Below, in pieces: positions 23,793 through 62,015 of a stretch of DNA of 64,000 nucleotides (within the stretch, counting starts at the first letter, position 1; every line of letters starts with the position of its first letter). A program made the translations under genes and the position numbers. The notes under the pieces were generated by a model, which saw nothing but the letters and a program-made list of their open reading frames with translations, was not told where the DNA came from and made no database searches. Origin of the DNA: an uncultured Gammaproteobacteria bacterium (GTDB taxonomy: Bacteria > Pseudomonadota > Gammaproteobacteria > Xanthomonadales > Xanthomonadaceae); NCBI GenBank assembly GCA_964640525.1, contig CAZXGS010000008.1:7174-71173 (forward strand), read 5' to 3'.

Positions 23793-24329
23793 TCATTGAT
23801 TTGGTAAGCTGATGGATGCCGGCCGTTCGATCCAGCCACCCGCCCCATCCGACACCAGCTCGGTGATGTTGATCTTCGTGGGTGTCACTTCGATCACCTT
23901 GCCGTCGTTCTGGCCGAGATAGTTGCCTGGAACGACGCGATGCGTCACTCGATCCGGCGACATGACCAAGGCAACAATGTGGCTGCCCGAGCCCAAGGTA
24001 CCGTTCATCACCAAGCTGTCCAGCGGAAAAGCCTCGAGAGGCTGCTTGGGACGGTTCGGTTCAGGCCTGGGCCCGGTGTTGCCCTTGCCTTGGTCGTTGG
24101 GCGCCGAGAATGGATCCCGCAGACCTTGATCCTTGTACACGAATGTTTCGAACTGCTGCATCGGCGGCACGGTATCCAGTGGCGGGCCCGGCTTGGCCTT
24201 GATCTGGGCCGCGTAGGTTTCAAGATTCGGATCGGAGGTGATCCCGCGCCCGCAGCCACCCAAGGTCGCCGCGATCGCGACCGGAACGATGCAACGCACT
24301 ACGACGTTTCGCAGACCAGTCATCTTCAC
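23793..24329 (-). CDS. pilP: type IV pilus assembly lipoprotein PilP
   Basis: 178 aa, lipobox LGGC. Its position between pilO and pilQ, and the conserved C-terminal beta domain, fit PilP. Confidence 0.85.
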   Translation of the reverse strand: MKMTGLRNVVVRCIVPVAIAATLGGCGRGITSDPNLETYAAQIKAKPGPPLDTVPPMQQFETFVYKDQGLRDPFSAPNDQGKGNTGPRPEPNRPKQPLEAFPLDSLVMNGTLGSGSHIVALVMSPDRVTHRVVPGNYLGQNDGKVIEVTPTKINITELVSDGAGGWIERPASISLPNQ

Positions 24330-25731: not shown

Positions 25732-26789
25732 CAGTCGAAACTCCTCATGGCAAGTCCGCAGGCGATCATCAGCGCCGGGGCATCCTGTGCCAGGGCATTG
25801 GCCTGGACGCGGGGACCGAGCGACATGTTCGCCAGCGGGTTGGCTAGAACGGTGGGCACGCCGAGTTGTTCCTCGATCATGCCCGGCATGCCGGCGATGG
25901 AAGCGCAACCGCCGGCCAGCACGATTTGGTCGACCCGATTGAACTCGCTGCCGGCGTAGAAGAACTGCAGGAGGCGGCTGATCTGCTGGACCATCGCTTC
26001 CTTGAACGGCTCGAGCACTTCGACCTCGTAACTCTCGGGCAGGCCGCCCTGGCGCTTGGCCAGCCCGGCTTCCTCGTAATTGAGGCCATAGCGACGCATC
26101 ACCTCGTCGGTGAGTTGCTTGCCACCGAAGGTCTGCTCGCGGGTGTAGATGCTGCGCTGGTCGCGCAGCACGTTGAGGGTGGTGATCGTAGCGCCCACGT
26201 CGAGCAATGCGACCAATCCATCCTTGGGCACCGAGAGCTGGTCGGCGATCAGGCGGAACGCGTTTTCCATCGCGAACGCCTCGACATCCATCACCTTGGC
26301 AGTCAGGCCGCCCATCTCCAGCGCCGACTGCCGCAGCTCCACGTTCTCCGAACGCGAGGCCACCAGCAGCACCTGCAGGATCTCGGCATTCCCGGGCATC
26401 GGCCCGAGCACCTCGAAATCCATGCTGACCTCATTGATCGGGTACGGGATGTACTGCGCGGCGTCGTACTGGATCTGATCCTCCAGCGCGTCGTCGTCCA
26501 GGTTGGCGGGCATGGTGATCAGCTTGGTGATCACCGCCGAGCCCGCTACCGCAGCCGCTGCATGCTTGGCACGGGTGCCGGAACGGCTGACCGCGCGTTT
26601 GATCGCCTCGCCGATCGCCTCGACCTCGACGATGGCCTTGTCGACCACGGCGTTGGACGGCAACGGCTCGACCGCGTAATGCTCCACGCGATAGCGGCCA
26701 CCGCTCTGGCTGAGCTGCAGCAACTTGATGGCAGTGGAACTGATGTCGACGCCGACGAGCGGCGCCTGTGCACTTCCGAAGAGACCCAC
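25731..26789 (-). CDS. pilM: type IV pilus assembly ATPase-like protein PilM
   Basis: Track ORF 25731..26978. A GTG at 26789, preceded by GGAGAAACC, gives VGLFGSAQAPLVGVDISSTAIKLLQL (352 aa, the normal PilM length). The alternative is the ATG at 26813. Confidence 0.88.
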   Translation of the reverse strand: MGLFGSAQAPLVGVDISSTAIKLLQLSQSGGRYRVEHYAVEPLPSNAVVDKAIVEVEAIGEAIKRAVSRSGTRAKHAAAAVAGSAVITKLITMPANLDDDALEDQIQYDAAQYIPYPINEVSMDFEVLGPMPGNAEILQVLLVASRSENVELRQSALEMGGLTAKVMDVEAFAMENAFRLIADQLSVPKDGLVALLDVGATITTLNVLRDQRSIYTREQTFGGKQLTDEVMRRYGLNYEEAGLAKRQGGLPESYEVEVLEPFKEAMVQQISRLLQFFYAGSEFNRVDQIVLAGGCASIAGMPGMIEEQLGVPTVLANPLANMSLGPRVQANALAQDAPALMIACGLAMRSFD

Positions 26790-27030
26790 GGTTTCTCCCC
26801 TTCCGACGGTCATTTGTCGGCGGTACATGTACCGGCCGTGACAAAGTAATAACGATTCGCTCACGAAATAGCAAGCGGGCAGCGCGAACTTTTTTCGCCG
26901 ACCCGCCTCCGACCCCCTCCTCGGACCCTCCCGCCCCCTGACGGAAAGGCGGCTCGATCCCCTGAGCCGGCCGCCCACGTTCTATACTCCATAACCCCAC
27001 ATCCTGCAAACCACCGGACGAATTCCAGGG

Positions 27031-42419: not shown

Positions 42420-42740
42420 TCAGCCCTGCTGCAACCATGCCGGAATGCCCCGGTGCGCGTGCAGGACTCGCCCGACCTCGACGTGCCGTGCGCGTTCCAC
42501 GAAAAACACCAGATACGGGAACCCCTTGACCGGCCAGCAGCGCAAGCCATCGAGATTGAGCTCGGCCGCGTACGGGGTCGATCCGGCCTTGGGGTAGCTA
42601 CCGATGTGCCGCAACGCGCCCTGCACCGCGGCGACCCAGCGCTGGGCCAGTCCCGAACCACCCTCCTTCCGATACCAAGCGGTGGCCTGTCGCAGATCCT
42701 GACGGGCCTTGGCGCTGAGGGTGACGCGCGTTGGCGTCAC
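42420..42740 (-). CDS. parE: type II toxin, ParE/RelE superfamily
   Basis: 106 aa with a GTG start that overlaps the antitoxin stop (GTGA). Pattern A..DL.....Y....G...A.R........L...P..G...........R......Y.V.Y......V.I..V.H fits ParE. Confidence 0.8.
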   Translation of the reverse strand: MTPTRVTLSAKARQDLRQATAWYRKEGGSGLAQRWVAAVQGALRHIGSYPKAGSTPYAAELNLDGLRCWPVKGFPYLVFFVERARHVEVGRVLHAHRGIPAWLQQG

Positions 42741-45763: not shown

Positions 45764-45788
45764 GCGTGGAAATCCCTGCTGTGGAAAG

Positions 45789-45905
45789 CCCCTCTCCCAC
45801 CGGGAGAGGGGTTGGGGTGAGGGGCCGGCCGCCCACGCAGGTCCGCGCTCGCACCGACCCCTCATCCGCCCCTTGCGGGGCACCTTCTTCCGCCGGGAGA
45901 AGGGA
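45789..45905. repeat. REP family A element (45789-45824) followed by a family B element (45858-45905)
   Basis: Same paired arrangement as 12694-12818 and 63472-63661. Lies in the acnD/fadH divergent intergenic region. Confidence 0.75.
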
Positions 45906-46073
45906 GGCGATGCGCATCGCCTTGCAGGCAACAGCCGAACGCCCATTGTGCCAGATGCGGCCGTACGCCTCGGTGATCGTCCGACCCATCGACCCCGTTC
46001 CATTGTCACCCAAACCGTCACCCAGCCACTTGTCGGCGATCCCGCGACTTGGCATATTCATACGATCGTTTGA

Positions 46074-48240
<2,167 letters not shown>

Positions 48241-48358
48241 AAGCAACCGGCTCCGTACCGCCATCCTCGCGGCGTTCGACCGCCGCCGGCCGGTCGCGTG
48301 GCGAGGGTGATCCAGAACGCCATCACCCAAAGTCTCCCGAATCCGTTCGGGGCGTGCC

Positions 48359-49111
48359 TCAGAACGGGTTCGCGCAGGCCTTTGCGGTCTTGCCGAACAT
48401 CTCGGTCTGGATCGCCGGAGACTGCATCAGCAGGTTGGCATAGGACTGAATCGGGATGCCGCCGGCACGGTAGCAAGCCGTGCCGAAGCCGGCGTCGTTG
48501 CCCGCACCGTTCATCAACTGGGTCACCCAGCGCACCGGCCAGACGATGACCGGATCGCAGTAATTCACCCGGATGCTGAGGATGTTGGCGTCCTGGATGC
48601 TCTGCTTGGACTTCGCGCCGGGCGTGGTGCTCCGGTACAACAGCCTGGCGTTGGGAATCGCGGTGATCGGGGTGCCATTCACCAGCACGTTGTTGTTGGT
48701 CGCGAAGTCCTTGAACGAATTGGCGGTCGGGTTGAGCACGTCGATCGCCACATTGTCCAGGCCACCGATGGCGCCCAGCGTGGTCTTGGTCCAGGCGTTG
48801 ACCAGCGACGAGGTGTAGCCGGCGATATCGCGATTCATGTTCGCGGACTGGTACAGCGGCACCAGCCCCTTGATCACGCCGGCGCGGATCGAACACACGC
48901 TGCCGTTGGCAACGATGCCCTCGCGCGCGCCGGAAATCGCGGCTTGGTCGAGCGTGGTCTTGGCCATGAAGAACAGCGCGAACTGCAGGATGCCCAGGGT
49001 CAGCAACAGCAACACCGGGATCACGATGATGAACTCGGCCAGCGATTGACCGGCCATGGCGTGGCGCCTGCCCAGCCGGGGTGCCAGCGGCTGCCGCACG
49101 GACCTTTTCAT
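48359..49111 (-). CDS. TadE-like pseudopilin-type protein (250 aa)
   Basis: N-terminus GQSLAEFIIVIPVLLLLTLGILQFALFFMAKTTLDQAA matches the TadE-like signature. Last gene of the Tad-like operon. Confidence 0.75.
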   Translation of the reverse strand: MKRSVRQPLAPRLGRRHAMAGQSLAEFIIVIPVLLLLTLGILQFALFFMAKTTLDQAAISGAREGIVANGSVCSIRAGVIKGLVPLYQSANMNRDIAGYTSSLVNAWTKTTLGAIGGLDNVAIDVLNPTANSFKDFATNNNVLVNGTPITAIPNARLLYRSTTPGAKSKQSIQDANILSIRVNYCDPVIVWPVRWVTQLMNGAGNDAGFGTACYRAGGIPIQSYANLLMQSPAIQTEMFGKTAKACANPF

Positions 49112-49275
49112 GGGATGCCCTCCGTCGTTGCGCAGGTCCGCGCACGCGAACCCGATCCGACATCGCCCTTCGTTGCGCTCGCGACCCCAACGAGGCCACG
49201 CGCGACACCCGCATCACCGTCACCCGCCGCCTTGGCGTTGCTGGCCGGGCCGGCATGGACGATTCCTGCGGTCAT
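49108..49275 (-). CDS. possible small ORF (55 aa), translationally coupled on both sides
   Basis: ATGA overlaps at both ends (with the DUF192 stop and the TadE-like start). By hand count, third-position GC is about 70 percent, lower than neighbouring genes. No TM segment or recognisable motif. Confidence 0.25.
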   Translation of the reverse strand: MTAGIVHAGPASNAKAAGDGDAGVARGLVGVASATKGDVGSGSRARTCATTEGIP

Positions 49276-49628
49276 GGCACACCCGCATCGCTCACCGTCA
49301 ATTGGCGCTGCGGCGTGATGCCCGCCCGCGCGCACGCGCCGGCGGCGAACTCCACCGTCGTCCTGGCCCGCAGGCAGGCGGCCATGCGCATCGGCCGCAG
49401 CGCGCTGACCACCCGCAGCACCACGCCGGAGGCGTCGAGGAACACCACGTCGATGGCGTACCGCATGCCCACGGTGTGGACGGCGTTGCAGCGCTCCAGG
49501 TACATCGCCTCGCCCGCCGCCAGCGGCGGCCGCCACAGCAGGCCGCGCATTCGCTCCAGCGGGCCGCGCGTCACCAGCAGCCGATCCGCCACGACCTCCC
49601 CACCCGACAGCAGCCTGGCGAGTTTCAA
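49272..49628 (-). CDS. DUF192-family protein
   Basis: C-terminal part of track ORF 49272..50426. A TTG at 49628 overlaps the tadC stop. RMRGLLWRPPL...AMYLERCNAVHTVGMRYAIDVVFLDASGVV...VEFAAG fits the DUF192 pattern. Start codon uncertain. Confidence 0.6.
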   Translation of the reverse strand: MKLARLLSGGEVVADRLLVTRGPLERMRGLLWRPPLAAGEAMYLERCNAVHTVGMRYAIDVVFLDASGVVLRVVSALRPMRMAACLRARTTVEFAAGACARAGITPQRQLTVSDAGVP

Positions 49629-50503
49629 AACAACCCCTGCTCGGCAACCATCATCACGATCGGGAACGCGATCACGATGAAGGTGGTGGGAAAGATGAAC
49701 ATGACCAGCGGAAACAGCAGCTTCACCGGCGCTTCCATGGCCATCTTCTCGGCGCGCTGGAAGCGTTCGTTGCGGCGCCGCTCGGCCTGCAGGCGCAACA
49801 CCTTGCCGACGCTGGCGCCGACCTGCTCGGCCTGGATGATCGCCGAGACGAACGAGGACACCTCGGGGATCGTCAGCCGCTCGTCCATGCGCCGCAGCGC
49901 GTCGGAGCGGTTCAGGCCGGCGCGGATGTCGCGCAGGACAAGGAAGAATTCCTGCCGCAGTGCGCCCTTCGGGCCCTTCTCGATGGTCTGCGCCATCGCG
50001 TTGGTGAAGTTCAGGCCGGCTTCCATGCCGAGCACGATGTAGTCCAGGAAGATCGGCAGCTCCTTGAGGATCGACTTGTGCCGATGGGTGAAGCGCTGGT
50101 TGAGCCACATCAGCGGGTAGAACAAGCCAAGCACGACGCCGAAGGCGGTCAGCGACCACGCCATCATCGGCCCGGTCTCGCGCACGCCGACGTAGATCAG
50201 GCCGCCCAGCGCCACCGCACCGATCAGCATCACCGAGCAGAACTCCTCGGCGGTCAGCATGTAGTTGGCACCGGAGCGGGCGATCTTCACGTACACGCCC
50301 TCCAGCAGCGGCGTGGGCAGACGCGAGCCGATGTAGGTGGACACGAAGCGCACCAGCGGCCAGATCGCGCGCAGGATGCGCGGCAGCGGGTCCAGGTAGA
50401 GGCGATCCTCCTCCGGCAGCTCCCACTGCAGGCCGGCCAGCGCCCAGATCGCCAGCACGACGGTGGCGATCACCAGCAGCGAAATGAGGACGATCAGGAT
50501 CAT
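49625..50503 (-). CDS. tadC: type II secretion system F-family inner-membrane protein, TadC-like
   Basis: Track ORF 49625..51454 trimmed to ATG 50503 (MILIVLISLLV...). 292 aa, with the T2SSF-type cytoplasmic domain flanked by TM helices. ATGA overlap with tadB. Confidence 0.85.
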   Translation of the reverse strand: MILIVLISLLVIATVVLAIWALAGLQWELPEEDRLYLDPLPRILRAIWPLVRFVSTYIGSRLPTPLLEGVYVKIARSGANYMLTAEEFCSVMLIGAVALGGLIYVGVRETGPMMAWSLTAFGVVLGLFYPLMWLNQRFTHRHKSILKELPIFLDYIVLGMEAGLNFTNAMAQTIEKGPKGALRQEFFLVLRDIRAGLNRSDALRRMDERLTIPEVSSFVSAIIQAEQVGASVGKVLRLQAERRRNERFQRAEKMAMEAPVKLLFPLVMFIFPTTFIVIAFPIVMMVAEQGLF

Positions 50504-51348
50504 ACGTCGATGTTGGTGATCTTGCGGATGCCGATGAAGCCCAGGATTTCCATGATCACGATCACGCCCAGGGTCATGTATCCGGGCATGCTGGTGAACA
50601 GCGGCGCCATCTCGCGCGGTTGCAGTTGGGTCAGGACCACGATCATCAACGGCGGCAGCGAGGTCATCACCAGGCCCTGGATCTTGCCCATCGAGGTCAG
50701 GCTGCGGATCTTGCCCTCGACCTGGATGGTGCGGGTGATGGTGCCGGCCAGCGAGTCGAGCATCTCGCCGAGGTTGCCGCCGGTCTCGCGCGAGATGCGC
50801 ACGCCGGCGGTGAACAGACCCATCTCCTCGAGCGGGATGCGCTCCTCCATCTTGCCCAGCGCATCCTCGAAGCTCATCCCCATGCGCTGGTTGCGCAACA
50901 TCAACGAGAACTCCTGCGACAGCGGCGGGTGGGCTTCCTTGGCGAGGTTCTCCAGGGTGGTCATCACGCTGGCGCCGGCGCGCAGCGAACTGGCCATGAC
51001 CGCCAGCGCATCGGGCAACTGGTTGCGGAACTTGTCCATCCGGCGTTTGCGCACGAAGTTGACGATCAACTTGGGCGCGATGATGGGTACCGGCAGGCTG
51101 AGCAGGGTGAACACCATGTTGTCGGTGAACAGCCACACCAGCGCCGGCACCGCGATGAACCCGAGGAAATACACCACCGCCAGCTTGCGATAGTCCACGA
51201 ACACGAACATGTCGGCGAGGTCGCGCTCGGTCGTGCCCTTGAGCTTCTCGACCTGCTTGTCGGCGAGGTGGCCCATGAACATCAGCGCCACCCAACCGAA
51301 CAGCACCAGGGTGAGGACCACGCAGACGATGATGGCCGCGATCATCAT
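50500..51348 (-). CDS. tadB: type II secretion system F-family inner-membrane protein, TadB-like
   Basis: 282 aa. LPDALAVMASSLRAGAS...AL is a typical T2SSF motif. ATGA overlap with the ATPase gene. Confidence 0.85.
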   Translation of the reverse strand: MMIAAIIVCVVLTLVLFGWVALMFMGHLADKQVEKLKGTTERDLADMFVFVDYRKLAVVYFLGFIAVPALVWLFTDNMVFTLLSLPVPIIAPKLIVNFVRKRRMDKFRNQLPDALAVMASSLRAGASVMTTLENLAKEAHPPLSQEFSLMLRNQRMGMSFEDALGKMEERIPLEEMGLFTAGVRISRETGGNLGEMLDSLAGTITRTIQVEGKIRSLTSMGKIQGLVMTSLPPLMIVVLTQLQPREMAPLFTSMPGYMTLGVIVIMEILGFIGIRKITNIDV

Positions 51349-53030
51349 AGGTGGCGACTGCCCTTGGCGAAGAAGATCGAACGGTCGATCTCGATGCCGC
51401 GCGCACCCAGTTCCTCGTAGAACTCGGGAACCCGGCCGGTGGCGACGAACTCACCGACCACCCGGCGTTCGGAGTCGAAGCCCTGCTGCTTGAACTGGAA
51501 GATGTCCTGCAACTGGATCACCCCGTTCTCCATCCCGGTCACCTCGGTGATGTGGGTGATCTTGCGGGCGCCATCGGACATGCGGTTCTGCTGCACGATG
51601 ATGTTGATCGCCGAGGACACCTGCTGGCGGATCGCCAACACCGGCAGGTCCATGCCGGCCATCAGCACCATCACTTCCAGGCGCGCCAGGGTGTCGCGCG
51701 GCGAGTTGGCGTGCACGGTGGTCAACGAGCCGTCGTGGCCGGTGTTCATCGCCTGCAGCATGTCCAGCGCCTCGCCGCCGCGGCACTCGCCGACCACGAT
51801 GCGGTCCGGGCGCATGCGCAGGCAGTTGCGCACCAGGTCGCGAATGCTTACCGCGCCCTTGCCCTCGACATTGGCCGGCCGCGATTCCAGCGAGATCAGG
51901 TTGGTCATGCCCAGCCGCAGTTCGGCGGCGTCTTCGACCGTGATCACGCGTTCGCGGTCGGGGATGAAATTGGACAGGATGTTGAGCAGGGTGGTCTTGC
52001 CCGAGCCGGTGCCGCCGGAAATGATGACGTTGCGCCGCTGCTCCACGCACAGGCGCAGGAAGTTCATCATCTCGTGGTTGGCCGAACCGAAGTCCACGAA
52101 GTCCTTGGCCACCAGCTTGCGCCTGGCGAACTTGCGGATGGTGATGTTGGGCCCCTTGAGCGCCAGCGGCGGGATCACCGCGTTGACGCGCGAGCCGTCG
52201 CGCAGGCGGGCATCCACCATCGGCGAGCCCTCGTCGATGCGGCGGCCCAGCGGGGTGACGATGCGTTCGATCGCCGACAGCACCGCCTGGTCGCTGGAGA
52301 ACACCACCGGTGCCGGCTCCAGCCGGCCGCCACGCTCGATGAAGATCTGGTCGAAGCAGTTGACCATCACCTCGCTGATGCTCTCGTCGGCCAGCAGGAC
52401 CTCCAGCGGGCCAAGACCGATCGCCTCGTTGAGCGCGTTGCGCGCCAACTGGTTGCGATCATAGGTGCCGATCAGGCCGGGGTCCTCGTTGATGATCTCC
52501 TCGATCAGCTCACGGGTCTTGGCGCGCAGCTCGGCCTCGCTCAGCCGCGTCACGTCCAGCCGACGGAAGTCCATCCTGGCGATGATCCGGTCGTGGATCG
52601 TGCGCAGGACGGCGTATTCGCCCTGGTCGAAGGCGTTGCCGGCCGCAGGCAGCGCGTCGGCGAACGGCTCCCGTGCCGGCGTCATCACCGCGGCGGAGGG
52701 CATGGCGCTGGCGGTGGCCGCCGTGCCGCCGGCTTCCTTCTGCAATACCGCCTGGATCTTGTAGCTGCCGATTCCGACGACGTCGTCAGGCAGCAACGGG
52801 CCGTGGGTGCGCGAGATGCGGTGCGAGTTGACCGTGGTGCCGGCGCGACTGCCCTCGTCGCGCACGTAGATGCCGTCCTCCTGCACCACCAGCACCGCGT
52901 GCGTGCGGCCCACGTCCCAGCCCTGCAACACCACGAGGTTTTCCACCGACTTGCCGATCGCGCAGATCGGCGCATTGCAGTTGACCGTCTGCACCTTGCC
53001 GCGCGAGTTGGAAACAGTTACCTGGAACAT
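51345..53030 (-). CDS. cpaF: CpaF/TadA-family secretion ATPase with N-terminal FHA domain
   Basis: 561 aa. Residues 1-95 have an FHA-like pattern (IGKSVENLVVLQGWDVGRTHAVLVVQEDGIYVRDEGSRAGTTVNSHRI...DDVVGIGSYKI). Then a linker and the CpaF core: Walker A GGTGSGKTTLLN, VGECRGGEA, GHDGSLTTVHAN. Confidence 0.9.
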   Translation of the reverse strand: MFQVTVSNSRGKVQTVNCNAPICAIGKSVENLVVLQGWDVGRTHAVLVVQEDGIYVRDEGSRAGTTVNSHRISRTHGPLLPDDVVGIGSYKIQAVLQKEAGGTAATASAMPSAAVMTPAREPFADALPAAGNAFDQGEYAVLRTIHDRIIARMDFRRLDVTRLSEAELRAKTRELIEEIINEDPGLIGTYDRNQLARNALNEAIGLGPLEVLLADESISEVMVNCFDQIFIERGGRLEPAPVVFSSDQAVLSAIERIVTPLGRRIDEGSPMVDARLRDGSRVNAVIPPLALKGPNITIRKFARRKLVAKDFVDFGSANHEMMNFLRLCVEQRRNVIISGGTGSGKTTLLNILSNFIPDRERVITVEDAAELRLGMTNLISLESRPANVEGKGAVSIRDLVRNCLRMRPDRIVVGECRGGEALDMLQAMNTGHDGSLTTVHANSPRDTLARLEVMVLMAGMDLPVLAIRQQVSSAINIIVQQNRMSDGARKITHITEVTGMENGVIQLQDIFQFKQQGFDSERRVVGEFVATGRVPEFYEELGARGIEIDRSIFFAKGSRHL

Positions 53031-53119
53031 GGTTCACGCCACCGCCGGAATGTTCGATCTTCATACCACGCCGCGCTTCCGACGCAACCGTCCCCGGTGC
53101 GTCGGCGCCGACACTCCGG

Positions 53120-54817
53120 CTATCCGTGACCCGGGGATGGCGCCGCTGCGGATGGCGCCGTCGCTGCATTGGCCGTTCCGGCAGACGCCGACCCGCCGCC
53201 CGCGTTCCCGGCCGCGCGCGCAGCGGCCTGCGCCTTCACCGGCGGTGCCGGGGCCACGGGTGCCGCGGGCTTGGTCAGCGCAGGTGCCGGATGCGCGTTG
53301 CTCGCACCGGGCGCAGCCTCGGCCGGCGCAGCTTCGGCCGGCGCAGGTGCCGGTTGGGACGCCGCAGGAGCTGCGTCCGGTACCGCGCGTTCCTGTTCGG
53401 GGTGCGATCCCGGGCCGATGCCGAAGCCGGGCATCTGGGTGGACCTGCCGTACTTGCTGTCGAAGTCCTGGATGATCTGGGTGCCGCGCTGGATCAACTC
53501 GGAATTCACCGCCGAGGACGGATCGATGACCTCGGGGGTGACGAAGATGACCAGCTCCGACTTGTTGGCATTGAAGTTCTTGTCGCGGAACAGGTAACCC
53601 AGGATCGGAATGTCGCCAAGCCATGGGAACTTGCTGATCGACTTGGCACCCCCGGCCTGGACCAGGCCGGACAGCACGATGGTCTGCCCGCTCTTGACGT
53701 TGACCACCGAGGCGGTCTTGCGGGTGAGGAAACCGGGGAAGCCCTGGATGGTCACCGACGGGTCGATCTGGCTGACCTCGGTGTTGATGTCGGCCAGCAC
53801 GTTGCCGTGCGCGTCGGCGACCGGCTTGATGTCCAGATGCACGCCGTAGTCCTTGTACTCCACCGTGCTCTGGCCGAGCACGCTGGTGATCGGGATCGGG
53901 ATCTGGCCGCCGGCGAGGAAGCTGGCGGTGCCCTCGCTGCGCGTGCTGAGCTGCGGATTGGCCAGCACGTAGGCATCGCCATGCTGGGCCGCGATGTTGA
54001 TGATCGAGGACAGCGAGGTGGTGATGCCGAAATACTCTGAAAATGGCACGTGCAGCGGCAGCCCGGTGGACGCTCCGCCCGGTCCTTGGAAGGCGTTGGC
54101 AGGGTTTCCGCCCTGGGTGAGGTCGCCCTGCCGGAAATACGGATTGGTGCGCCAGTCCTTGACGATGCCCAGCGACGGCCCGGCCAGCACGTTCTGCCAG
54201 TCGATGCCGATGTTGCGCAGCGCCGACTTCTTGAAGTCCACCACCTGCACGTCCAGGTAGACCATGCGCTGCATGTCCACCGTGCCTGGATGGGTGAGGT
54301 TGACGACGTCGGGCACCGATTGCGCCACCGTCTCCACGCGCTTGTAGTCGTCGGGCGTCAGGTCGCCGGTGAGGATGACCCGGCCTGCGGTATTGGCGAC
54401 CTTCAGGCCAGGCACCGAAGCCAGGGCGCTGGCCAGACCCTCTGCCGCCTCGCGTGCATTCACGGGGGTGACCAGGATGTTGAACGCCTGCACGCCGCCG
54501 TTCTTGTGCCACAACAGCATGTTGGTGTTGCCTGCGGCCTGGCCGATCAGGATCAGGTCGTCGCCGGCCTGCTGCACCGACACCAGCTTGCCGTTGCCAA
54601 GCGCCACGCGCTTGACGTCGCGCAGGTGCAGGACCTTGACTTCGCCGGCGTACAGGGTCAACTGGCTTGCGGCCGTTTCACCCTCGGCGGTGACGGCGCG
54701 CGGCGCGCGGGCGGTGGCCTGGGTCGGTACCCGTGCCGGCGCGGGAAGTGCCGCCAGCAGCGTCGTTGCAGCCGTCGCCACAACCCATCGAGCGGATTGG
54801 TTCATCGTCAAGATCAT
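53120..54817 (-). CDS. cpaC: secretin, CpaC/RcpA family, with Ala/Pro-rich C-terminal tail
   Basis: 565 aa. Signal peptide, N-domains, and the secretin core (KFPWLGDIPILGYLFRDKNFNANKSELVIFVTPEVI). About 110 aa of A/P-rich low complexity at the C-terminus. Alternative start at ATG 54805. Confidence 0.9.
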   Translation of the reverse strand: MILTMNQSARWVVATAATTLLAALPAPARVPTQATARAPRAVTAEGETAASQLTLYAGEVKVLHLRDVKRVALGNGKLVSVQQAGDDLILIGQAAGNTNMLLWHKNGGVQAFNILVTPVNAREAAEGLASALASVPGLKVANTAGRVILTGDLTPDDYKRVETVAQSVPDVVNLTHPGTVDMQRMVYLDVQVVDFKKSALRNIGIDWQNVLAGPSLGIVKDWRTNPYFRQGDLTQGGNPANAFQGPGGASTGLPLHVPFSEYFGITTSLSSIINIAAQHGDAYVLANPQLSTRSEGTASFLAGGQIPIPITSVLGQSTVEYKDYGVHLDIKPVADAHGNVLADINTEVSQIDPSVTIQGFPGFLTRKTASVVNVKSGQTIVLSGLVQAGGAKSISKFPWLGDIPILGYLFRDKNFNANKSELVIFVTPEVIDPSSAVNSELIQRGTQIIQDFDSKYGRSTQMPGFGIGPGSHPEQERAVPDAAPAASQPAPAPAEAAPAEAAPGASNAHPAPALTKPAAPVAPAPPVKAQAAARAAGNAGGGSASAGTANAATAPSAAAPSPGHG

Positions 54818-54841
54818 CCTGTGAATTCGGTCGTGGAAGCG

Positions 54842-55867
54842 TCAGTGGCCGCCCATCCCGCCGTTGCCGGGGGACGGAGGTGCGGGCTGGCTGTTCTGCA
54901 ACAGAGCGCGCAGCAGCGCCTTGGCGGCCTGCTGGGTCTGCTCGGGCGGTAGCGGCTTGTCCGGCTGCGCCTGCGGCGCGGCGACCTTGGGCGCGGTGCC
55001 CGAGTACATCACCTGCTGGCTGACCGAGCCGCCGGAACCGATGATGAACTGGATCGCGCCGGTGCCGCTGTTGGCCTGGACATTGTCGGCGCCCAACCTG
55101 GTCAGCAGGTCCACGCTGTTGACCTTGGGCATGTCCTTGGCGCCGACCACGGTGTCGGTGCCGGGCGCCAGCGCGATCCGCAGCGTCCCCAACTCGTTGG
55201 CCAGCAACAGCTCGGAGGCTTGATCGGCGGTCAACTGCAGGGTGATCGTGCCGAACTGGCCGGCCAGGTTCTGCCCGGGCTTGGGCATGCCCTCGCTGAA
55301 GCCGAGGTCGTTGCCGGTCGCCAGCACCAGTGCCCGATGCAGCACCGGCAGCAGATCCTGCACATCGCCGCCGCCTTCGTCGCTGCGACTGGTGGACAGC
55401 AGGATGTCGATGTGGTCGCCCGGGCGCAGCAGGCCAGACAGCGCATTGACCTCGTCCACCGTGATCGTCACCGCGCGCGTGCCGGCGGGCAGCAGCGAAG
55501 CGAAGTCGGACACCTCCAGCTTGTCGAAGTAGCTCGACAGCATCGGCTTTCCCGCCACCACCGGCCGCCGCAGCGCGCGCCCGGAGAACTGCGCGAAGTC
55601 CTTCATCAGGATCGTGTCCGGATACAGCAAGTCTTTCGGAAACGAGCGTTCGGACATGTTTTCGTTGCTGACCACGGTGCCCGGCGGCAGGTCGGTGCTG
55701 GGCACGACCACATCCACCATGCCCTCGGTCATCCTCTGCTGCATCTCTGCCTGGTACTGCGACTTGGTCTGATGCAGGTAGCGCACGATCAGCGTCACCG
55801 ACACGATCGCCAGCACCATGGCGATCAGCAACATCCCGACGTATCTGTTTACTTGAGGTATGCGCAT
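54842..55867 (-). CDS. cpaB: Flp pilus assembly protein CpaB/RcpC (SAF domain)
   Basis: 341 aa. N-terminal TM anchor, an SAF-like region (VVVPSTDLPPGTVV), and an RcpC-like region (TRAVTITVDE...GLLRPGDHIDILL). Confidence 0.85.
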   Translation of the reverse strand: MRIPQVNRYVGMLLIAMVLAIVSVTLIVRYLHQTKSQYQAEMQQRMTEGMVDVVVPSTDLPPGTVVSNENMSERSFPKDLLYPDTILMKDFAQFSGRALRRPVVAGKPMLSSYFDKLEVSDFASLLPAGTRAVTITVDEVNALSGLLRPGDHIDILLSTSRSDEGGGDVQDLLPVLHRALVLATGNDLGFSEGMPKPGQNLAGQFGTITLQLTADQASELLLANELGTLRIALAPGTDTVVGAKDMPKVNSVDLLTRLGADNVQANSGTGAIQFIIGSGGSVSQQVMYSGTAPKVAAPQAQPDKPLPPEQTQQAAKALLRALLQNSQPAPPSPGNGGMGGH

Positions 55868-55876
55868 CTTCGAGGC

Positions 55877-56104
55877 TTATGGCAGGGAAATCAGGAAGGT
55901 GAAGTTCATCCACCACGTATGCAACACTTCGATCAGTTTTTCGATCACCGGCTTCGGCGGCCCGCCAACTCCGGGGATCGGAAGGACCGCAAGCAAAAAG
56001 ATGACCGCAAGCGCGGCCACGATGTATTCGGCCATGGCCTGACCGTGCTGGCGCGATCGGATGCCCAGCCGCGGGGCACGGAGCGCGTGCAGCCGCGGAC
56101 TCAT
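55877..56104 (-). CDS. small Flp-like (type IVc) prepilin-like protein, 75 aa
   Basis: C-terminal part of track ORF 55877..56755. The ATG at 56104 overlaps the upstream stop (ATGA). RQHGQAMAEYIVAALAVIFLLAV contains a G/xxxxEY-type Flp processing motif. Confidence 0.65.
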   Translation of the reverse strand: MSPRLHALRAPRLGIRSRQHGQAMAEYIVAALAVIFLLAVLPIPGVGGPPKPVIEKLIEVLHTWWMNFTFLISLP

Positions 56105-56853
56105 TGCGACATCACCGTGAGGGTGATCGACGCGCCCGATTTCAACGGCGCCACCACGATCCCGGCGTGGCTGCGGCCCTTGCTGAACATCAGCATCGAC
56201 GGGCCGCTGCCGCGCGCGGAGGGCATGTCCTGACTCCAGCCGAACGAGGGCATGTTCTGCGTGTACCAGTCGACCACGGCACCGGGCAGGTTGGCGGTGT
56301 AGAGCAGCCACGTGTCGCCGTTGCGGCCGCCGTCCTGGCTGACCATGTGGGTCAGCGGTCGCGCATCGCCTGGCGCGGGAAAATCCAGCACGCCGGAACC
56401 GAAGTCCTGTCCCAGCGTGCCGATGCCCAGCAGGGCGGTCGAGCCACCCTTGCCATCCGCGCGGATCTGCACGGTGTAATAGCACTGGCCTTCCTTGTGC
56501 CCGACCACGTCCCAGGGTCCGAGGGTGTCTTCCACGAACAGCGGCCGATTCGGCTGGCCCTTCCACAGATCCTTGTAGAACTGGGCGAAAGCGCCCGGGG
56601 ACAACCTGCTGTTGGCCGCCACGATGCTCATCAGGCGACCGTTGATGATGATGCGTGGCGCGATCAGTTGCTGGGCGGTATTCGCCGGCGTCTTCAGGCT
56701 CGCGCAGGTCACCTGCGGCACCGCGGTCGCCGCGGCGACTCCCGCCATGCCCCATGCCAGCACCAGCGCCAGACCGGCGCAGCGCAAGGCTGCACGATGC
56801 ACGGGAAAGGCACCGGATAGAGTGGACCGCATGCGCTTCATGGTCGACATCAT
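56101..56853 (-). CDS. secreted hypothetical protein (250 aa), Tad-locus specific
   Basis: C-terminal part of track ORF 56101..57549. The ATG at 56853 overlaps the upstream stop. Signal-like LRCAGLALVLAWGMAGVAAATA. I recognise no family. Confidence 0.65.
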   Translation of the reverse strand: MMSTMKRMRSTLSGAFPVHRAALRCAGLALVLAWGMAGVAAATAVPQVTCASLKTPANTAQQLIAPRIIINGRLMSIVAANSRLSPGAFAQFYKDLWKGQPNRPLFVEDTLGPWDVVGHKEGQCYYTVQIRADGKGGSTALLGIGTLGQDFGSGVLDFPAPGDARPLTHMVSQDGGRNGDTWLLYTANLPGAVVDWYTQNMPSFGWSQDMPSARGSGPSMLMFSKGRSHAGIVVAPLKSGASITLTVMSQ

Positions 56854-58193
56854 CCTGTGGTCACCAGCGAACTGCCCGGCTTGGCCGGGTCCGGCACCAC
56901 CGTGACCGAGGTGGTGGTGCCATTCGGGGTCGACAGCACACCGTCGACCTCGACGGCATTTTGTTCCTGGCCAGCGGCACAGGTGACGCCGCCGGCGCAG
57001 ATGTAAGTCACGCTGGACACCGTGAAGCCGGAGCTGGCCATCTGCCCGGAATAGGTCTGCCAGGCGGTGTACGGATTGCCGGACAGCGACACCGAACTGC
57101 TCGTGGTCATCCCGCCGGATGGATTCAGGGTCACCGTGACCACCGAGGATCCCCGCTGGAACACCAGCACCACCGATCCGTCCGCCTGCTTGGTGTTGCT
57201 GACCACGGAAAATCCCATCGCCGCGTACTGGGCGATGACCTGGTCGATTTGCGATTGCGACACGCCGGTTGTGCCGCCACCGGGCGGGTTGTAGTTCTTC
57301 AGCCGATCCGCCGGCACCGAACCGGCATCGGTCACATCGATGTAGCCGAAGCCCACCGGACCGCCGCCCTGGCTGCCCAGGTCGGGAATCACGAACCCGA
57401 TGATGCTCTGGAAATCGCTGACCAGCTTGCCGATCGACGCCAATGCCTTGGGTCGGGTGGCGCAATCGTTGTCCAGCGTCCCGAGGATCGACGTGGGCAC
57501 CGCCGTGGCCGCCTGGCAGCGCTCGTATTTTTCGTCCGCGGCGCTCCATCCGTCCGCGAGCAGGACGTCGCGGGCGGAGAAGGTCAAGGATTTTCCATCG
57601 ATCAGGTTGACGTAGTCAGTCGGACCGATCGGCATCTTCGGTTTCACCGCGACATTGGCGGTGTAGTACTTGTCCATGGTCAGCACGAACCCTGCGCCCA
57701 CCAAGTCCCGCAGCGGCTTCAGGGTGACATCCAGCACCTTGTCGGTGGCAAAGCTGCCCGGCTCGGCATTGCCTTGCGCGGTGGCCGTGACCTGGTTCGC
57801 CTTGCCGACCAGTTGGTTCCCGCCCTGATCCACCCACAGCGGCAGGTTGCCGAAGTTCGCCAGCGAATCGTTCTGCTGCTGCGTGACGCCGGTGAATCCG
57901 CTGCTGAAGAAGCGCATCTTGACCGCATTGGCGAGCTGCGCGTCGGTCAGCTTGGCCATCTTGGCATCGCGCTCGTAGCCCGAATTGCTGTACACCGTGC
58001 GCTCGAAGGCGGTGTAGCGCGCCGCCTGCAGGGTCGCCGAGCGCATGGTGATGAACTTGCCGACCAGCACGATCATCAGGAAGAACGGCGCCAGAAAAAA
58101 CAGCGCCACGATGATCGACTCGGCCATCGACTGCCCGCGCATGCCGCGCGGTGGCACGAATGACCCGTCCCGCGGGCGCAGCCGAGCCCTCAT
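56850..58193 (-). CDS. large TadE-like N-terminal domain protein (447 aa)
   Basis: Track ORF 56850..58505 trimmed to ATG 58193 (ATGA overlap with the upstream gene). GQSMAESIIVALFFLAPFFLMIVLVGKFITMRSATLQAARYTAFE is TadE-like. About 380 aa of unassigned C-terminal sequence follows. Confidence 0.7.
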   Translation of the reverse strand: MRARLRPRDGSFVPPRGMRGQSMAESIIVALFFLAPFFLMIVLVGKFITMRSATLQAARYTAFERTVYSNSGYERDAKMAKLTDAQLANAVKMRFFSSGFTGVTQQQNDSLANFGNLPLWVDQGGNQLVGKANQVTATAQGNAEPGSFATDKVLDVTLKPLRDLVGAGFVLTMDKYYTANVAVKPKMPIGPTDYVNLIDGKSLTFSARDVLLADGWSAADEKYERCQAATAVPTSILGTLDNDCATRPKALASIGKLVSDFQSIIGFVIPDLGSQGGGPVGFGYIDVTDAGSVPADRLKNYNPPGGGTTGVSQSQIDQVIAQYAAMGFSVVSNTKQADGSVVLVFQRGSSVVTVTLNPSGGMTTSSSVSLSGNPYTAWQTYSGQMASSGFTVSSVTYICAGGVTCAAGQEQNAVEVDGVLSTPNGTTTSVTVVPDPAKPGSSLVTTG

Positions 58194-59611
58194 GGCCCCA
58201 CCCCTGCCGCCTGCGCCCCATCCGCCGCCACCACCACCGGCAGCGAGGTCTTGACCAGGTGCGCTTCCCAGTATGGATTGAAGAAATTGCCGTACACCAG
58301 GCTGCCGCCCAGGCTCCACTGCCCGTCCGGACGCACGAAATAGGCGTTGGCCGAGGACGCGACCTGGACCATCGCCGAGGCCTCGGAGTCGTACACGTCC
58401 AACTTGCCACCGGCGATCGGCTTGCCGCTGTCGTGCATCTGCTTGGTGGTGTCGACGGTATCGGAGGTGCGCTCGACGAACAGGGTGATGGTGGGCGATT
58501 CCCAAGCCGGGCTGGTCAGGTCACGCAGGCCCATGTACTGGCGCAGACCATTGAAATCCCCGACCTTCCACTGCTGTCCGGCATTGCCTCCGGCGATGCC
58601 TTGCCCGCTGGACGGCGGCACCGGGATGAAGATGGGAATCGGGATCGGGATGACGGCGTCGATGACACACACGCCCACCCCGAAATAATTGCCGTTGTCC
58701 GAGGCCTTCCACTGGGTGTTGTCGTTTGACAGGTTGGCCGAGCCATTCCAGTGGCCAAAGAAGGTGATCCCGCCGACGCCATCCGGACAACTGCCGAACG
58801 CGGTCAGCAGCGATTCGAACGGGGGCATCTCCGAACCACCGCGCGCCCGCGTCCAGTTGTCCAGGCTGGCCATGGTCACGTTGTGGAAGCGGTTTTTGGG
58901 ATCGTCCTGGTTCTTGTATGGCGTGTAGCGCTTGTGGAACTTGAGCAACTGGACTTCCGAGGCGCCCAACGCCGCCACGCCGGCAACGCTGAGCTTGGCC
59001 TGCGGATCATTGTCCTTGACGACCTCGTTGGCGACCGCCGGCACTTCGGCCGCGGTTCCGTACAGGTACGCGGCGGAGGCGGTGCTCAACACGCTCTCCA
59101 GTCCGTTGAGGAAGGTGACCACCGGCCCGGTGGTGCCGTCCAGGGCATTGAACACCGTGCTGGAGATGTTCTGGTAGATCTTGTTGGAAGTCTTGCCAGG
59201 CTCGCCGGGGCTGAAGATCGACAGACCGAACTTGATCATGTCGTCGGTGCCGTTGGACGAGTACTTGCCGCACTTGTTCTGGGTGAAGATCAGGCAGTAG
59301 AACCGCGACCACGACGCCAGACTGACCATCTGCGCGATCGCCACCTGGTTGGCGACCATGGCACGGTTGGAATAGGCGGTGAAGTTGTATGCCCGCGCCA
59401 TCACCTGCGCGCTGGAATAGGAAGCCGAATCGGCAGTGTCCTGCAGGCGGGTGCGGACGAGGTTCATCCGCCCGACGTTGTAGACCAGCAGGCCGGCCAG
59501 CAGCAGGGCGAGCGCCAGGATCGCAACCAGAATGATGACCTGCCCGGACTGGCGCCGACGCGCCCCGGTCTCGGGTTGCCTGCGATGGAATGTGGCGGTG
59601 CCCCCCAGCAC
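58190..59611 (-). CDS. TadG-like (Flp pilus-assembly TadE/G-like N-terminal domain) protein, 473 aa
   Basis: Track ORF 58190..59749. A GTG at 59611, preceded by AGGAGG, lies downstream of the flp terminator. RRRQSGQVIILVAILALALLLAGLLVYNVGRMNLVRTRLQDTADSA fits the TadG N-terminal signature. Confidence 0.7.
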   Translation of the reverse strand: MLGGTATFHRRQPETGARRRQSGQVIILVAILALALLLAGLLVYNVGRMNLVRTRLQDTADSASYSSAQVMARAYNFTAYSNRAMVANQVAIAQMVSLASWSRFYCLIFTQNKCGKYSSNGTDDMIKFGLSIFSPGEPGKTSNKIYQNISSTVFNALDGTTGPVVTFLNGLESVLSTASAAYLYGTAAEVPAVANEVVKDNDPQAKLSVAGVAALGASEVQLLKFHKRYTPYKNQDDPKNRFHNVTMASLDNWTRARGGSEMPPFESLLTAFGSCPDGVGGITFFGHWNGSANLSNDNTQWKASDNGNYFGVGVCVIDAVIPIPIPIFIPVPPSSGQGIAGGNAGQQWKVGDFNGLRQYMGLRDLTSPAWESPTITLFVERTSDTVDTTKQMHDSGKPIAGGKLDVYDSEASAMVQVASSANAYFVRPDGQWSLGGSLVYGNFFNPYWEAHLVKTSLPVVVAADGAQAAGVGP

Positions 59612-59747
59612 GTTGCCTCCTGCCAGCGTTGAATCCCCGACGGCCTTCCGCGTCCCTGCCCCCCGGTCCGCCGCGATCACCCGCAAACAGCCGGATTCGA
59701 CTGCCTTTCCACCCCGCGAGCGGCGAGAAATTGACCCGCCATCACTC

Positions 59748-59788
59748 AAAAAACCTTCCCCGCGCCTGGCATCAGGCCGCGGGGAAGG
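59748..59788 (-). terminator. strong rho-independent terminator immediately after the flp pilin gene
   Basis: Perfect 11-bp stem ccttccccgcg (59754-59764) / cgcggggaagg (59778-59788), 13-nt loop, then TTTTTT on the minus strand (59748-59753). Confidence 0.85.
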
Positions 59789-59816
59789 CGATCCACACTG
59801 TCCTTGACCGTATCGA

Positions 59817-60128
59817 TCAGCCGCCCGTCTGGCTGGCGTCGGCCGCGTTGGACTTGTAGTTCTTCAGGTTGTACTGGTTGCTGGCCTCGACGTTGGCCTT
59901 GCTGGCCGCCGACGCGGCGGCGTTGTTGCCGGCGATACCGCCCTTGCCGGCCAACTGGCTGGTGATGGAGGCCATCTGGCCGCGCACCGTCTTGCCGAAG
60001 AACGAATACACCGCGATCGCGGCGATCGCGACCAGAGCGACGATGATGATGTACTCGGTCATGCCCTGGCCGATCTGGCCGAGACGGAAACCGCGCTTGC
60101 CCAGCGTGCGTGGAGCCTGCATGTTCAT
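59817..60128 (-). CDS. flp: Flp-family type IVc prepilin (major pilin candidate), 103 aa
   Basis: MNMQAPRTLGKRGFRLGQIGQG/MTEYIIIVALVAIAAIAVYSFFG carries the Flp G/xxxEY motif and hydrophobic helix. RBS GAGG. First gene of the locus. Confidence 0.85.
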   Translation of the reverse strand: MNMQAPRTLGKRGFRLGQIGQGMTEYIIIVALVAIAAIAVYSFFGKTVRGQMASITSQLAGKGGIAGNNAAASAASKANVEASNQYNLKNYKSNAADASQTGG

Positions 60129-60986
60129 GGTGACCTCATTTCATGGTTGATGGATTTTCCAGGCACCCACGCGCCTGCGGGAACTGCGCCTTCGGCCTTC
60201 TCCGATCTGGCACGCGCCCGCGACCACAGGAGCACCAGCGTTGAAATTTTCCTTGCGAAGGACGAGGGATCCGGCAGGTCCGCCGGAGCATTGCTCTGGC
60301 TCGCACTGTCTTCCCTGACGAAAACCCCTTGCCCGCCACTTCCTGCAACACCTGCCTGTTCGGCAACCGCCTGACCCTTTGCCATCGGATCGCCCAGCTG
60401 CAACCTTCCACAGCCGGCCCATTCGATGCAAGCAGCCCCTGCCTGAAGCCGCTGCCCGCAAGGCAAACCATACGCCGGCGAACGCGACTATACGCCGGCG
60501 GATGCTCTGTTCAAGACCCGCATTCAGGCCTTCGAAGTTACCGCAAGAAAACTGTGCAAAGTACTTTCCTTGACGGAAATTTTGCCGGAAAGCGGAAATT
60601 TCCTGACAGCCGAACATGAATGCACACTGAATATCTTGCCAGAATCCTGACCGCTCGTCGTTTTCATTACGTTTCGGTAATCCAACATTCATTCAAAGTG
60701 TGACGTGCTTGGCTTGACGTTCGCCCATTTGCAAGCCGACGCTGGCCGGATGCGCCGGGCGATCGATCCCTGGTGCATCCCTCCACGCCATTTCGCGTAT
60801 CGGCAGGCCATCGCCGGCGCTGCAATGCAGATGGCCCGGCGGCGCCTGCAGATGCAGGCGGTCCGGCAGCCGTCTTGTCCGCAGGCTTTCGACGATTCAT
60901 CATCGCGACCCGTCGATGCGTGCTGCGTCGAGGCACATCTGGCACACCACACGATCTGTCGGCAGACCGGGGACAGGGAAGCACGC

Positions 60987-62015
60987 ATGAACCGATGCAC
61001 CGCCTTGCGCTGGACGGCAACCCTTGCGATTGGCCTGGGCGGCCACGCCACGGCCGGCACATTGTACCTGTGCGACACCGGCCAGCCGCCCGCAGGTGCG
61101 ACCGCCTCGCCGGCGCCAGCGGCTGGCCATTGCGTGCCGGTGACGCAGGCCGCGCAGGCCCTCGGCGCCCGCATGGCATCGCGTGGCAGCGACGTCGGAC
61201 GCAGCATGACGATCGGCGCCACGCTCCCCGCACGAGCCATCGATGCGGAATCGGTGCTGACCGCCGAACCCGGCGACACCCCGACGACGCCGATCCACGC
61301 CACGACCGGAGCTGCACCAACCCAGGCACCACCTGCCGAACGGCCATCCGTGCCTGCGTCCGCCGCAGCCGCACAAGGCGTCATCCTGGTGGCCGACGCA
61401 CACGGCCGGCTGCGCGCCACCACGGGATCACCTTCGGCGAGCGCGCCTGCTTCTGCAACCGAAGCCAACATGTTCCATTACACGCGCAACGGCGTCACCA
61501 TCTACACCAACACGCCACAACGCGCGCTGATGGCGTCGCGCCTCCCGTTTCTCCTGATCGGCAATTGCGATGCCTGTTCGATGGTGGGCATGGGCATCAC
61601 GCTCGGGCGGATGGTCCTCAACACCACCGCATTCGAACCGGAGATCGCCACCGCCGCGCGCACCTGGGGCGTGAGCGAGTGGCTGGTGCGCGCAGTGATC
61701 CATGCCGAGTCGGGGTTCAATCCGGCCGCCGTCTCCGGCAAGGGCGCGCAGGGCCTGATGCAGCTCATGCCCGGCACCGCGGCCAGGTTCGGCGTCCATG
61801 ACGCGTTCGCCGCCGACGACAACATCCGCGGCGGCGTGCAGTACCTGGCCTTTCTATCGCAGCGCTACCACGGCGACATCCGCCTGATCGCGGCGGCCTA
61901 CAATGCCGGCGAGGCCAACGTGGATCGTTACGGCGGCGTGCCGCCGTTCGCCGAGACCCGCCGCTACGTGGCACGCGTCGCCAGCCTGGCCAAGCGCTAC
62001 CAGGACAAGCACTGA
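60987..62015 (+). CDS. lytic transglycosylase (SLT domain) with signal peptide and Ala/Pro/Thr-rich linker
   Basis: Track ORF 60705..62015 trimmed to ATG 60987 (MNRCTALRWTATLAIGLGGHATA). SLT motifs: HAESGFNPAAVSGKGAQGLMQLMP and AAYNAGEANV. Confidence 0.85.
   Translation: MNRCTALRWTATLAIGLGGHATAGTLYLCDTGQPPAGATASPAPAAGHCVPVTQAAQALGARMASRGSDVGRSMTIGATLPARAIDAESVLTAEPGDTPTTPIHATTGAAPTQAPPAERPSVPASAAAAQGVILVADAHGRLRATTGSPSASAPASATEANMFHYTRNGVTIYTNTPQRALMASRLPFLLIGNCDACSMVGMGITLGRMVLNTTAFEPEIATAARTWGVSEWLVRAVIHAESGFNPAAVSGKGAQGLMQLMPGTAARFGVHDAFAADDNIRGGVQYLAFLSQRYHGDIRLIAAAYNAGEANVDRYGGVPPFAETRRYVARVASLAKRYQDKH

Follow-up and report, generated by a model that had tools for sequence, protein, structure and literature searches.

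The 64,000-nt stretch of DNA analyzed here, referred to throughout as the window, comes from an uncultured gammaproteobacterium of the family Xanthomonadaceae, and the minus strand between positions 48359 and 60128 carries the genes for a Flp/Tad-type (type IVc) pilus. From the 5´ end, the gene order is flp, tadG-like, a gene for a 447-aa pseudopilin, a gene for a 250-aa periplasmic protein, a gene for a 75-aa mini-Flp, cpaB, cpaC, FHA-cpaF, tadB, tadC, a DUF192 gene and tadE. None of the 12 genes is truncated: their open reading frames (ORFs) are intact and translationally coupled, and GC content at third codon positions (GC3) is 0.85-0.95. From the coordinates, 4-nt start/stop overlaps are found at the tadG/447, 447/250, 250/75, cpaF/tadB, tadB/tadC, tadC/DUF192, DUF192/orf55 and orf55/tadE junctions, where orf55 denotes a possible 55-aa ORF; the remaining gaps between genes are 9, 24 and 89 nt, and a 205-nt spacer separates flp from tadG. 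In a frame-specific GC3 plot, minus-strand coding is unbroken across 48359-60128, and this plot, together with the matching translated sizes, bears out the tightly joined gene string that the original prediction, made from the sequence without database searches, had described at this position. We consider it probable that these 12 genes form an intact operon encoding a type IVc pilus and that the locus belongs to a lineage in which CpaF carries an FHA domain and works independently of TadZ.

Profile hidden Markov model (HMM) searches placed the core Tad parts above the Pfam thresholds, with the exception of a weak Flp_Fap match. The genes described in this and the following paragraphs as parts of the operon all lie on the minus strand. 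The CpaF motor ATPase (561 aa, 51345..53030) has an FHA domain at residues 25-88 (PF00498, 41.9 bits against a cut-off of 20.7) and, from about residue 135, an ATPase core that matches T2SSE with 208 bits and contains both Walker A (GGTGSGKTT) and the His box. The best PDB matches to this core were structures of Caulobacter CpaF (9e24 and 8rjf; E = 1e-115 over residues 135-547). Two inner-membrane platform proteins, TadB (282 aa, 50500..51348) and TadC (292 aa, 49625..50503), each matched T2SSF (E = 3e-18 and 1e-18, respectively). The outer-membrane secretin CpaC/RcpA (565 aa, 53120..54817) matched Secretin (E = 2e-41) and T2SS-T3SS_pil_N (E = 3e-12), and the periplasmic alignment protein CpaB/RcpC (341 aa, 54842..55867) matched RcpC (E = 9e-24) and SAF as well as TIGR03177 pilus_cpaB (150 bits). 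Matches above threshold were also obtained to Tad for the 473-aa protein, to DUF192 and to TadE for the 250-aa protein encoded by the last gene. No significant Pfam family was found for the 447-, 250-, 75- and 55-aa products, the 447-aa protein giving only a sub-threshold match to MucBP_2, and no NCBIfam family was found for the 447-, 250- and 75-aa products.

TadZ was not detected in the window. The window genes scanned with Pfam contained no ParA, CbiA or AAA_31 domain, and a TadZ HMM was negative over the 64 kb. This HMM was built from matches to a regular expression for the deviant Walker A motif and was run, along with an HMM for A24 prepilin peptidases built from five A24 genes, on every stop-to-stop ORF of at least 60 aa; the genes left out of the Pfam scan, for transketolase, PilQ, PBP1A, citrate synthase, RecG, SpoT, RpoZ and PrpD, were identified by eye. 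In the original prediction, neither TadZ nor TadD nor an A24 prepilin peptidase had been recognized in the 64 kb, and the Pfam scan and the HMMs concur. Scanning a genome collection with the FHA-CpaF sequence gave 80 loci, the best only 56% identical, and gene order was mapped by tblastn. Among these, TadZ was present, directly upstream or fused to CpaF, in 52/52 loci whose CpaF lacks FHA and in 0/28 loci with FHA-CpaF. The TadZ HMM was likewise negative for L081 and L083-L086, five additional loci retrieved through homologues of the 250- and 447-aa proteins. Pfam spot checks gave Response_reg with AAA_31/ParA for L029, CbiA/ParA-T2SSE fusions for L015 and L022, and a Peptidase_A24 in L017.

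In a neighbor-joining tree of the ATPase core, all FHA-CpaF proteins group together, with one TadZ fusion (L022) nested inside. The FHA group takes in ATPases of Archangium and Citreicoccus, which we take to be KilF-like. The TadZ-CpaF fusions (L015, L019, L021, L022, L023, L026, L033, L035 and L046) are 700-1260 aa long; six of them form a group of their own, and L022, L035 and L046 fall outside it. We also noted that such fusions are common in Bdellovibrionales-like and other metagenome-assembled genomes (MAGs) and resemble the TadZA of Bdellovibrio. The division between FHA and TadZ is therefore a clade trait, which shows evolutionary replacement and does not amount to proof of equal function.

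The gene order of the window recurs, with variation in a tetratricopeptide repeat (TPR) gene, in Chromatiales, Oleiphilus, Piscinibacter, Quisquiliibacterium, Polaromonas, Halofilum and several MAGs, and a variant order with tadB and tadC placed elsewhere was found in Acidithiobacillus. Altogether, the same operon was seen in at least 12 beta- and gammaproteobacterial loci plus two close relatives. The latter were found through the 250-aa protein and have an identical operon: the closest MAG relative (GCA_018242485.1, here L083) is 63-69% identical and Rhodanobacter umsongensis (L085) about 50% identical. No exact match to the CpaF protein was found, and judged from these homologues the host of the window is Rhodanobacteraceae-like. 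Complete genomes with the operon include those of R. umsongensis (GCA_977014105.1) and Acidithiobacillus ferrianus (CP127523). The original prediction had proposed a distinct architectural subtype, and this holds, with the gene order recurring across beta- and gammaproteobacteria and with TadZ and a locus peptidase lacking throughout. Because the same operon is present in many genomes and in two close relatives, the subtype is real and widespread. A literature search returned no paper describing an FHA-CpaF operon in proteobacteria and nothing relevant for the Acidithiobacillus tad genes. The operon is a variant of the Tad machine, not a new kind of system.

We compared the FHA domain with a GarA sequence entered by hand. 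Relative to this reference, the window domain has Lys, Gly and Ala at the Arg, Ser and Asn sites (GK, GRTH and AG) and retains only the structural His. Similar substitutions at the phosphothreonine sites are found in most syntenic relatives, several of which keep the Arg, and GR, SxxH and NG are retained in Myxococcota, Lentisphaerae and other distant members. The window protein also gave a borderline match to Yop-YscD_cpl (33.9 bits against a cut-off of 33.2). Since the Arg, Ser and Asn are lost and this borderline match is present, the window FHA domain is probably a phospho-independent docking or interaction module. In type III secretion systems, cytoplasmic FHA-like domains of the YscD/PrgH type, which are not known to retain the canonical phosphothreonine residues, have a scaffolding role; the resemblance is at the domain level only, and the machine and the partner proteins are different. 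Hanks-type Ser/Thr kinase genes lie beside flp in two of the relatives, in L001 at 288-1796 (minus strand), about 1.1 kb away and divergent, and in L009 at 1656-2996 (plus strand), directly upstream, the latter kinase additionally having a cNMP-binding domain. No kinase was found in the window.

A prepilin peptidase is likewise missing from the locus. Peptidase_A24 was not found among the window genes scanned with Pfam, and the A24 HMM was negative over the 64 kb, in the 17 syntenic proteobacterial loci and in L083, L085 and L086, the search in these relatives covering the loci only. The same HMM matched TadV-like genes in 26/80 loci, including the Myxococcota and Lentisphaerae FHA loci L017, L020, L024, L059 and L070. 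The absence of both TadZ and a locus peptidase is thus the normal state for the whole subtype. Elsewhere in the window, the type IVa genes pilM, pilN, pilO, pilP and pilQ are located at 21486-26978 (minus strand), divergent from a PBP1A gene at 27031-29790 (plus strand), with pilQ and the PBP1A gene recognized by eye only. The host therefore makes type IVa pili and very probably has a PilD peptidase encoded elsewhere in its genome. Sharing of peptidases is established: in Bdellovibrio, which is without TadV, PilD processes Flp1 (bioRxiv 10.64898/2026.07.08.737194), and all MSH loci are without a peptidase, with type IV filament systems sharing these enzymes (Denise et al., PMC6668835). Given this precedent and the lack of a locus peptidase in the subtype, a trans-acting PilD is likely to be the processor of the window prepilins and is the most economical candidate.

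Four of the window proteins, Flp, the 447-aa TadE-like protein, the 75-aa mini-Flp and TadE, carry a leader of the form [R/K/H/A]G↓Q-x-x-x-E (the arrow marks cleavage). All syntenic loci with full coverage of the region encode such class III leaders, with the motif G↓Q(G/A/S)xxE and usually four per locus. The major prepilin Flp (103 aa, 59817..60128) has a predicted cleavage site at RLGQIG↓QGMTEY that would leave an 83-aa mature protein, longer than the usual Flp sizes. Its Flp_Fap match reached 17.7 bits against a Pfam cut-off of 32.2, despite the G/xxxxEY motif and the hydrophobic helix. Both of these features and the mature N-terminus QGMTEYIIIVAL are kept in the flp-containing loci (13/19 examined), with QGMTEYIIIVAL nearly invariant. 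The mini-Flp (75 aa, 55877..56104) would be cleaved at QHG↓QAMAEY to a 54-aa mature protein; its motif and position are conserved across the syntenic loci, and it is called as a gene of 70-76 aa in L083 and L085. The TadE minor pilin (250 aa, 48359..49111; PF07811, E = 5e-13), with predicted cleavage at MAG↓QSLAEF, is encoded by the last gene of the operon in the relatives too. The TadG-like protein (473 aa, 58190..59611) has an N-terminal membrane anchor, matches PF13400 Tad (E = 4e-11) and keeps its position in the relatives, and 473 aa is an ordinary length for TadG.

The large TadE-like minor pilin (447 aa, 56850..58193) has a class III signal peptide with predicted cleavage at RG↓QSMAES, and a 68%-identical homologue gives a weak TadE match on the leader. 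Because profile searches aligned it with its relatives only over the first ~235-255 positions, its C-terminal module (about residues 310-447) is specific to this lineage. The structure model of this protein is poor (mean pLDDT 44.6) and confident at residues 310-447 only, and a fold search with this low-confidence model gave no match and was uninformative. The periplasmic protein (250 aa, 56101..56853) has a predicted Sec signal peptide followed, in a model with mean pLDDT 79, by two tandem beta-beta-alpha-beta4 repeats; Cys50 and Cys124 are invariant. With Foldseek, nothing in the PDB matched at E < 0.001; DcrB and PsbP came closest, as partial resemblances. An exhaustive profile search gave 787 representative clusters for this family at E <= 0.001, and profile searches with the 250- and 447-aa proteins found no homologues in the Myxococcota and Lentisphaerae FHA loci fetched. 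A domain common to the two proteins was considered, homologues of both being tagged PF27226, and was not supported (hhalign probability 0.7%, E = 0.084).

The relatives have a TPR gene between the DUF192 gene and tadE, encoding ~156-161 aa in L001, L003, L004, L009, L083 and L085 (156-157 aa in the close relatives) and a longer product in L013 and L014. The product carries a signal peptide or lipobox together with TPR repeats, and the latter passed the Pfam cut-offs for L001 and L085. L005 has this gene, in the same size range of 156-161 aa, upstream on the other strand, and the slot of L006 is without one. In the window, the slot is a 160-nt spacer (49112..49271) that holds the 55-aa ORF, and ~220 nt that cannot be aligned to L083 did not resemble the L083 or L085 TPR gene at the DNA or protein level. 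Because the relatives have a gene in the slot and the window slot lacks similarity to it, the lineage of the window has lost its TadD-like TPR gene. The original prediction had listed the missing TadD among the traits of the subtype; with the small TPR gene present in relatives, the loss is instead local to the window. The 55-aa ORF, suggested as a possible gene in the original prediction, is probably not one: its GC3 is ambiguous, it has no counterpart in the relatives and it matches no Pfam family. Its reading as a remnant of the TPR gene was dropped on the same lack of similarity and ambiguous codon bias. The sole TPR among the window genes scanned is in an unrelated BatB/C-like vWA protein (14621-16660, minus strand), which is part of an aerotolerance-type (Bat) operon also encoding BatD, DUF58, DUF4381 and MoxR. 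Within this gene, a 15-bp unit is repeated 15 times at 14976-15205 and encodes a Gln/Ala-rich tract (QQQAQ repeats).

The DUF192 protein (118 aa, 49272..49628; PF02643, E = 3e-14) was present as first described, with its start now corrected to a TTG at 49628. By eye, it has no signal peptide (no predictor was run), and no solved relative was detectable at the sequence level. A DUF192 gene was found in the fetched stretch of 36/80 CpaF loci from Proteobacteria, Firmicutes, Chloroflexota and others, of both the TadZ and the FHA type, and it is directly 3´ of tadC in 10/11 mapped loci that have it. A literature search found no paper tying DUF192 to Tad pili, and the family may be an overlooked general Tad component.

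In the flp-tadG spacer (RNA fold z-score of -3.4), a strong GC-rich hairpin followed by U6 lies at 59748..59788, and a similar hairpin is found in L083. It is a plausible attenuator or terminator that would set the ratio of pilin to machinery. A scan for sigma-70 promoters gave a single weak site ~360 nt upstream of flp that was no better than chance.

The genes flanking the operon are unrelated to it, with an OYE-type reductase, an aconitase and ParE on one side and a divergent SLT transglycosylase, a cell-wall hydrolase and a GST on the other. The ParE-family toxin gene (42420-42740, minus strand) adjoins the aconitase-family gene (43148-46021). The divergent SLT lytic transglycosylase gene beside flp (60705-62015, plus strand) has a counterpart in L083 (4938-5786, minus strand) and could encode a dedicated peptidoglycan-remodelling enzyme or be a mere neighbor; as a part of the system it was set aside, being absent from L085 and all 80 scanned loci, and it is treated here as a neighbor. 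GC content is 0.64-0.68 over 48001-62000 and 0.69-0.70 in the flanks. This slightly lower GC content and the different flanking genes in the window, L083 and L085 suggest that the operon moves between chromosomal contexts.

Repeats were observed elsewhere in the window. A 141-bp unit is present three times, with 98% identity, at 7944-8366; its translation includes RMKVAIASLLLAGLG, and the repeat triplicates the 5´ end (the signal-peptide region) and the upstream sequence of an HlyD-family gene (7062-8438, minus strand). A 50-bp unit (TTCGACAGGCCTGTCCTGAGC..GGCGAAGGGCTCACCACGAAC) occurs in 2.7-2.9 tandem copies at 4453-4585, 10040-10186 and 10414-10558, mostly intergenic, and looks like a dispersed repeat family.

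Set beside the canonical loci, flp-tadV-rcpCAB-tadZABCDEFG of Aggregatibacter and cpaA-F of Caulobacter, the window operon shares Flp, RcpC/CpaB, RcpA/CpaC, TadA/CpaF, TadB, TadC and TadE- and TadG-like proteins. It differs in having no TadZ/CpaE, TadV/CpaA or TadD, in the FHA domain on the ATPase, in the position of tadG and the large pseudopilin gene directly 3´ of flp, and in the extra genes for the 250-aa protein, the mini-Flp and DUF192. The Tad system of Bdellovibrio bacteriovorus is similar in that there is no dedicated TadV and the N-terminus of the ATPase is remodelled (bioRxiv 10.64898/2026.07.08.737194); in Bdellovibrio, however, TadZ is fused to TadA and the genes are dispersed across the genome, whereas the window protein has FHA and no TadZ. 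The closest characterized relative is the Kil prey-killing apparatus of Myxococcus xanthus, in which the KilF ATPase has an FHA domain and TadZ, TadD and RcpB are all missing; Kil-like systems have been reported in deltaproteobacteria only (PMC8460266). The window operon resembles Kil in the N-terminal FHA domain on a CpaF-type ATPase, the absence of TadZ, and the presence of CpaB, a secretin, TadB/C, a Flp pilin and pseudopilins, and the ATPase cores of the fetched Myxococcota loci fall in the same clade as that of the window. Peculiar to Kil are its two clusters, many extra FHA proteins and lipoproteins, the peptidase KilA and the lack of TadG. The window has instead a single compact operon with TadG, DUF192, the 250-aa protein and the mini-Flp, and cpaF was the only one of the Pfam-scanned window genes to encode an FHA domain.

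The four leaders are seen directly in the sequence, and the remainder of the mechanism that we propose for this pilus is drawn from homology. A peptidase encoded elsewhere, likeliest the host PilD of the type IVa pilus and type II secretion systems, would cleave the four prepilins after Gly. The CpaF ATPase, as a hexamer, would then polymerize Flp on the TadB/TadC platform, with the fibre passing through the CpaB ring and then the CpaC secretin. Priming or capping of the fibre would fall to the minor pilins and TadG, and the 447-aa protein may display its C-terminal module at the tip. In place of TadZ, the FHA domain at the N-terminus of CpaF would see to docking or positioning, probably without binding phosphothreonine, and the 250-aa periplasmic protein and DUF192 would be conserved accessory parts. 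Surface adhesion or biofilm formation by means of a retractable Flp fibre is the likely output.

Several points weigh against this interpretation. No peptidase gene was seen, and prepilin processing is hence assumed. The window lacks the TadD-like TPR gene of the relatives, which could impair assembly of the secretin. For the putative major pilin, the Flp_Fap score is under the Pfam cut-off. The split between FHA and TadZ follows one clade and thus reflects few independent events. Finally, with kinases beside the L001 and L009 operons, whose FHA domains are equally degenerate, phospho-signalling may still matter.

A broader proposal is that the compact beta- and gammaproteobacterial operons make up a separate, widespread Tad lineage in which a phospho-independent FHA domain replaced TadZ, the 250-aa protein, the mini-Flp and the giant minor pilin form a periplasmic or tip assembly, and the output is Kil-like effector delivery or display. 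As a whole, this proposal strikes us as possible and tentative. The tip complex or cargo put forward in the original prediction is likewise speculative. A narrower reading is that the locus encodes a Kil-like apparatus for contact-dependent killing or effector delivery, or for secretion with the 250-aa protein or the 447-aa module as cargo. Clustering of the ATPase core with Myxococcota FHA-CpaF proteins that resemble KilF is in line with this, as are the FHA fusion and missing TadZ common to Kil (PMC8460266) and the several conserved components that match no known function. However, homologues of the 250- and 447-aa proteins were not found in the fetched Myxococcota and Lentisphaerae FHA loci, the window has a TadG that Kil lacks and is without extra FHA proteins or a kilA-type peptidase, and the phosphothreonine-binding residues of FHA are lost here and kept in Myxococcota. 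Translational coupling of the 250-aa gene between pilin genes fits a structural part better than cargo. The host genera given in the source records of the loci are not known to be predators. We regard a killing or secretion apparatus as unlikely.

Somewhat less probable again is that the locus is a remnant, silent or in decay, which without TadD, a peptidase and TadZ no longer builds a pilus. Loss of the TPR gene that close relatives keep would fit such decay, and the GC content slightly under that of the flanks, with the differing flanking genes, suggests recent mobility. Yet 12/12 genes have their full length, codon bias is strong and the 4-nt overlaps are kept, and the whole subtype is normally without TadZ and TadV; L006 also has no TPR gene in the slot, and L005 has one elsewhere in the locus. 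That this is a canonical Tad locus with a very divergent TadZ, TadV or TadD among the four ORFs without a significant Pfam family is highly improbable, since none of them was identified as such by Pfam, by NCBIfam, by locus-derived HMMs or by predicting structures and comparing them with Foldseek. The 250-aa protein has a beta-rich fold of two repeats behind a signal peptide and shows no P-loop, polytopic topology or TPR, the 447- and 75-aa proteins are pilin-like, the 55-aa ORF is not conserved, and the TadZ and A24 HMMs from neighboring loci were negative.

Tad pili drive adhesion, biofilm formation and surface sensing, as well as prey killing in predators, and current models count TadZ, TadV and TadD as standard parts. 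The operon described here belongs to a large uncharacterized lineage that dispenses with TadZ and a dedicated peptidase. The dichotomy between FHA and TadZ leads to the testable idea that the motor can be docked or positioned without TadZ, and DUF192 and the family of the 250-aa periplasmic protein stand out as candidate new Tad components. The lineage also carries relatives of the Kil-type ATPase well beyond the predatory deltaproteobacteria.

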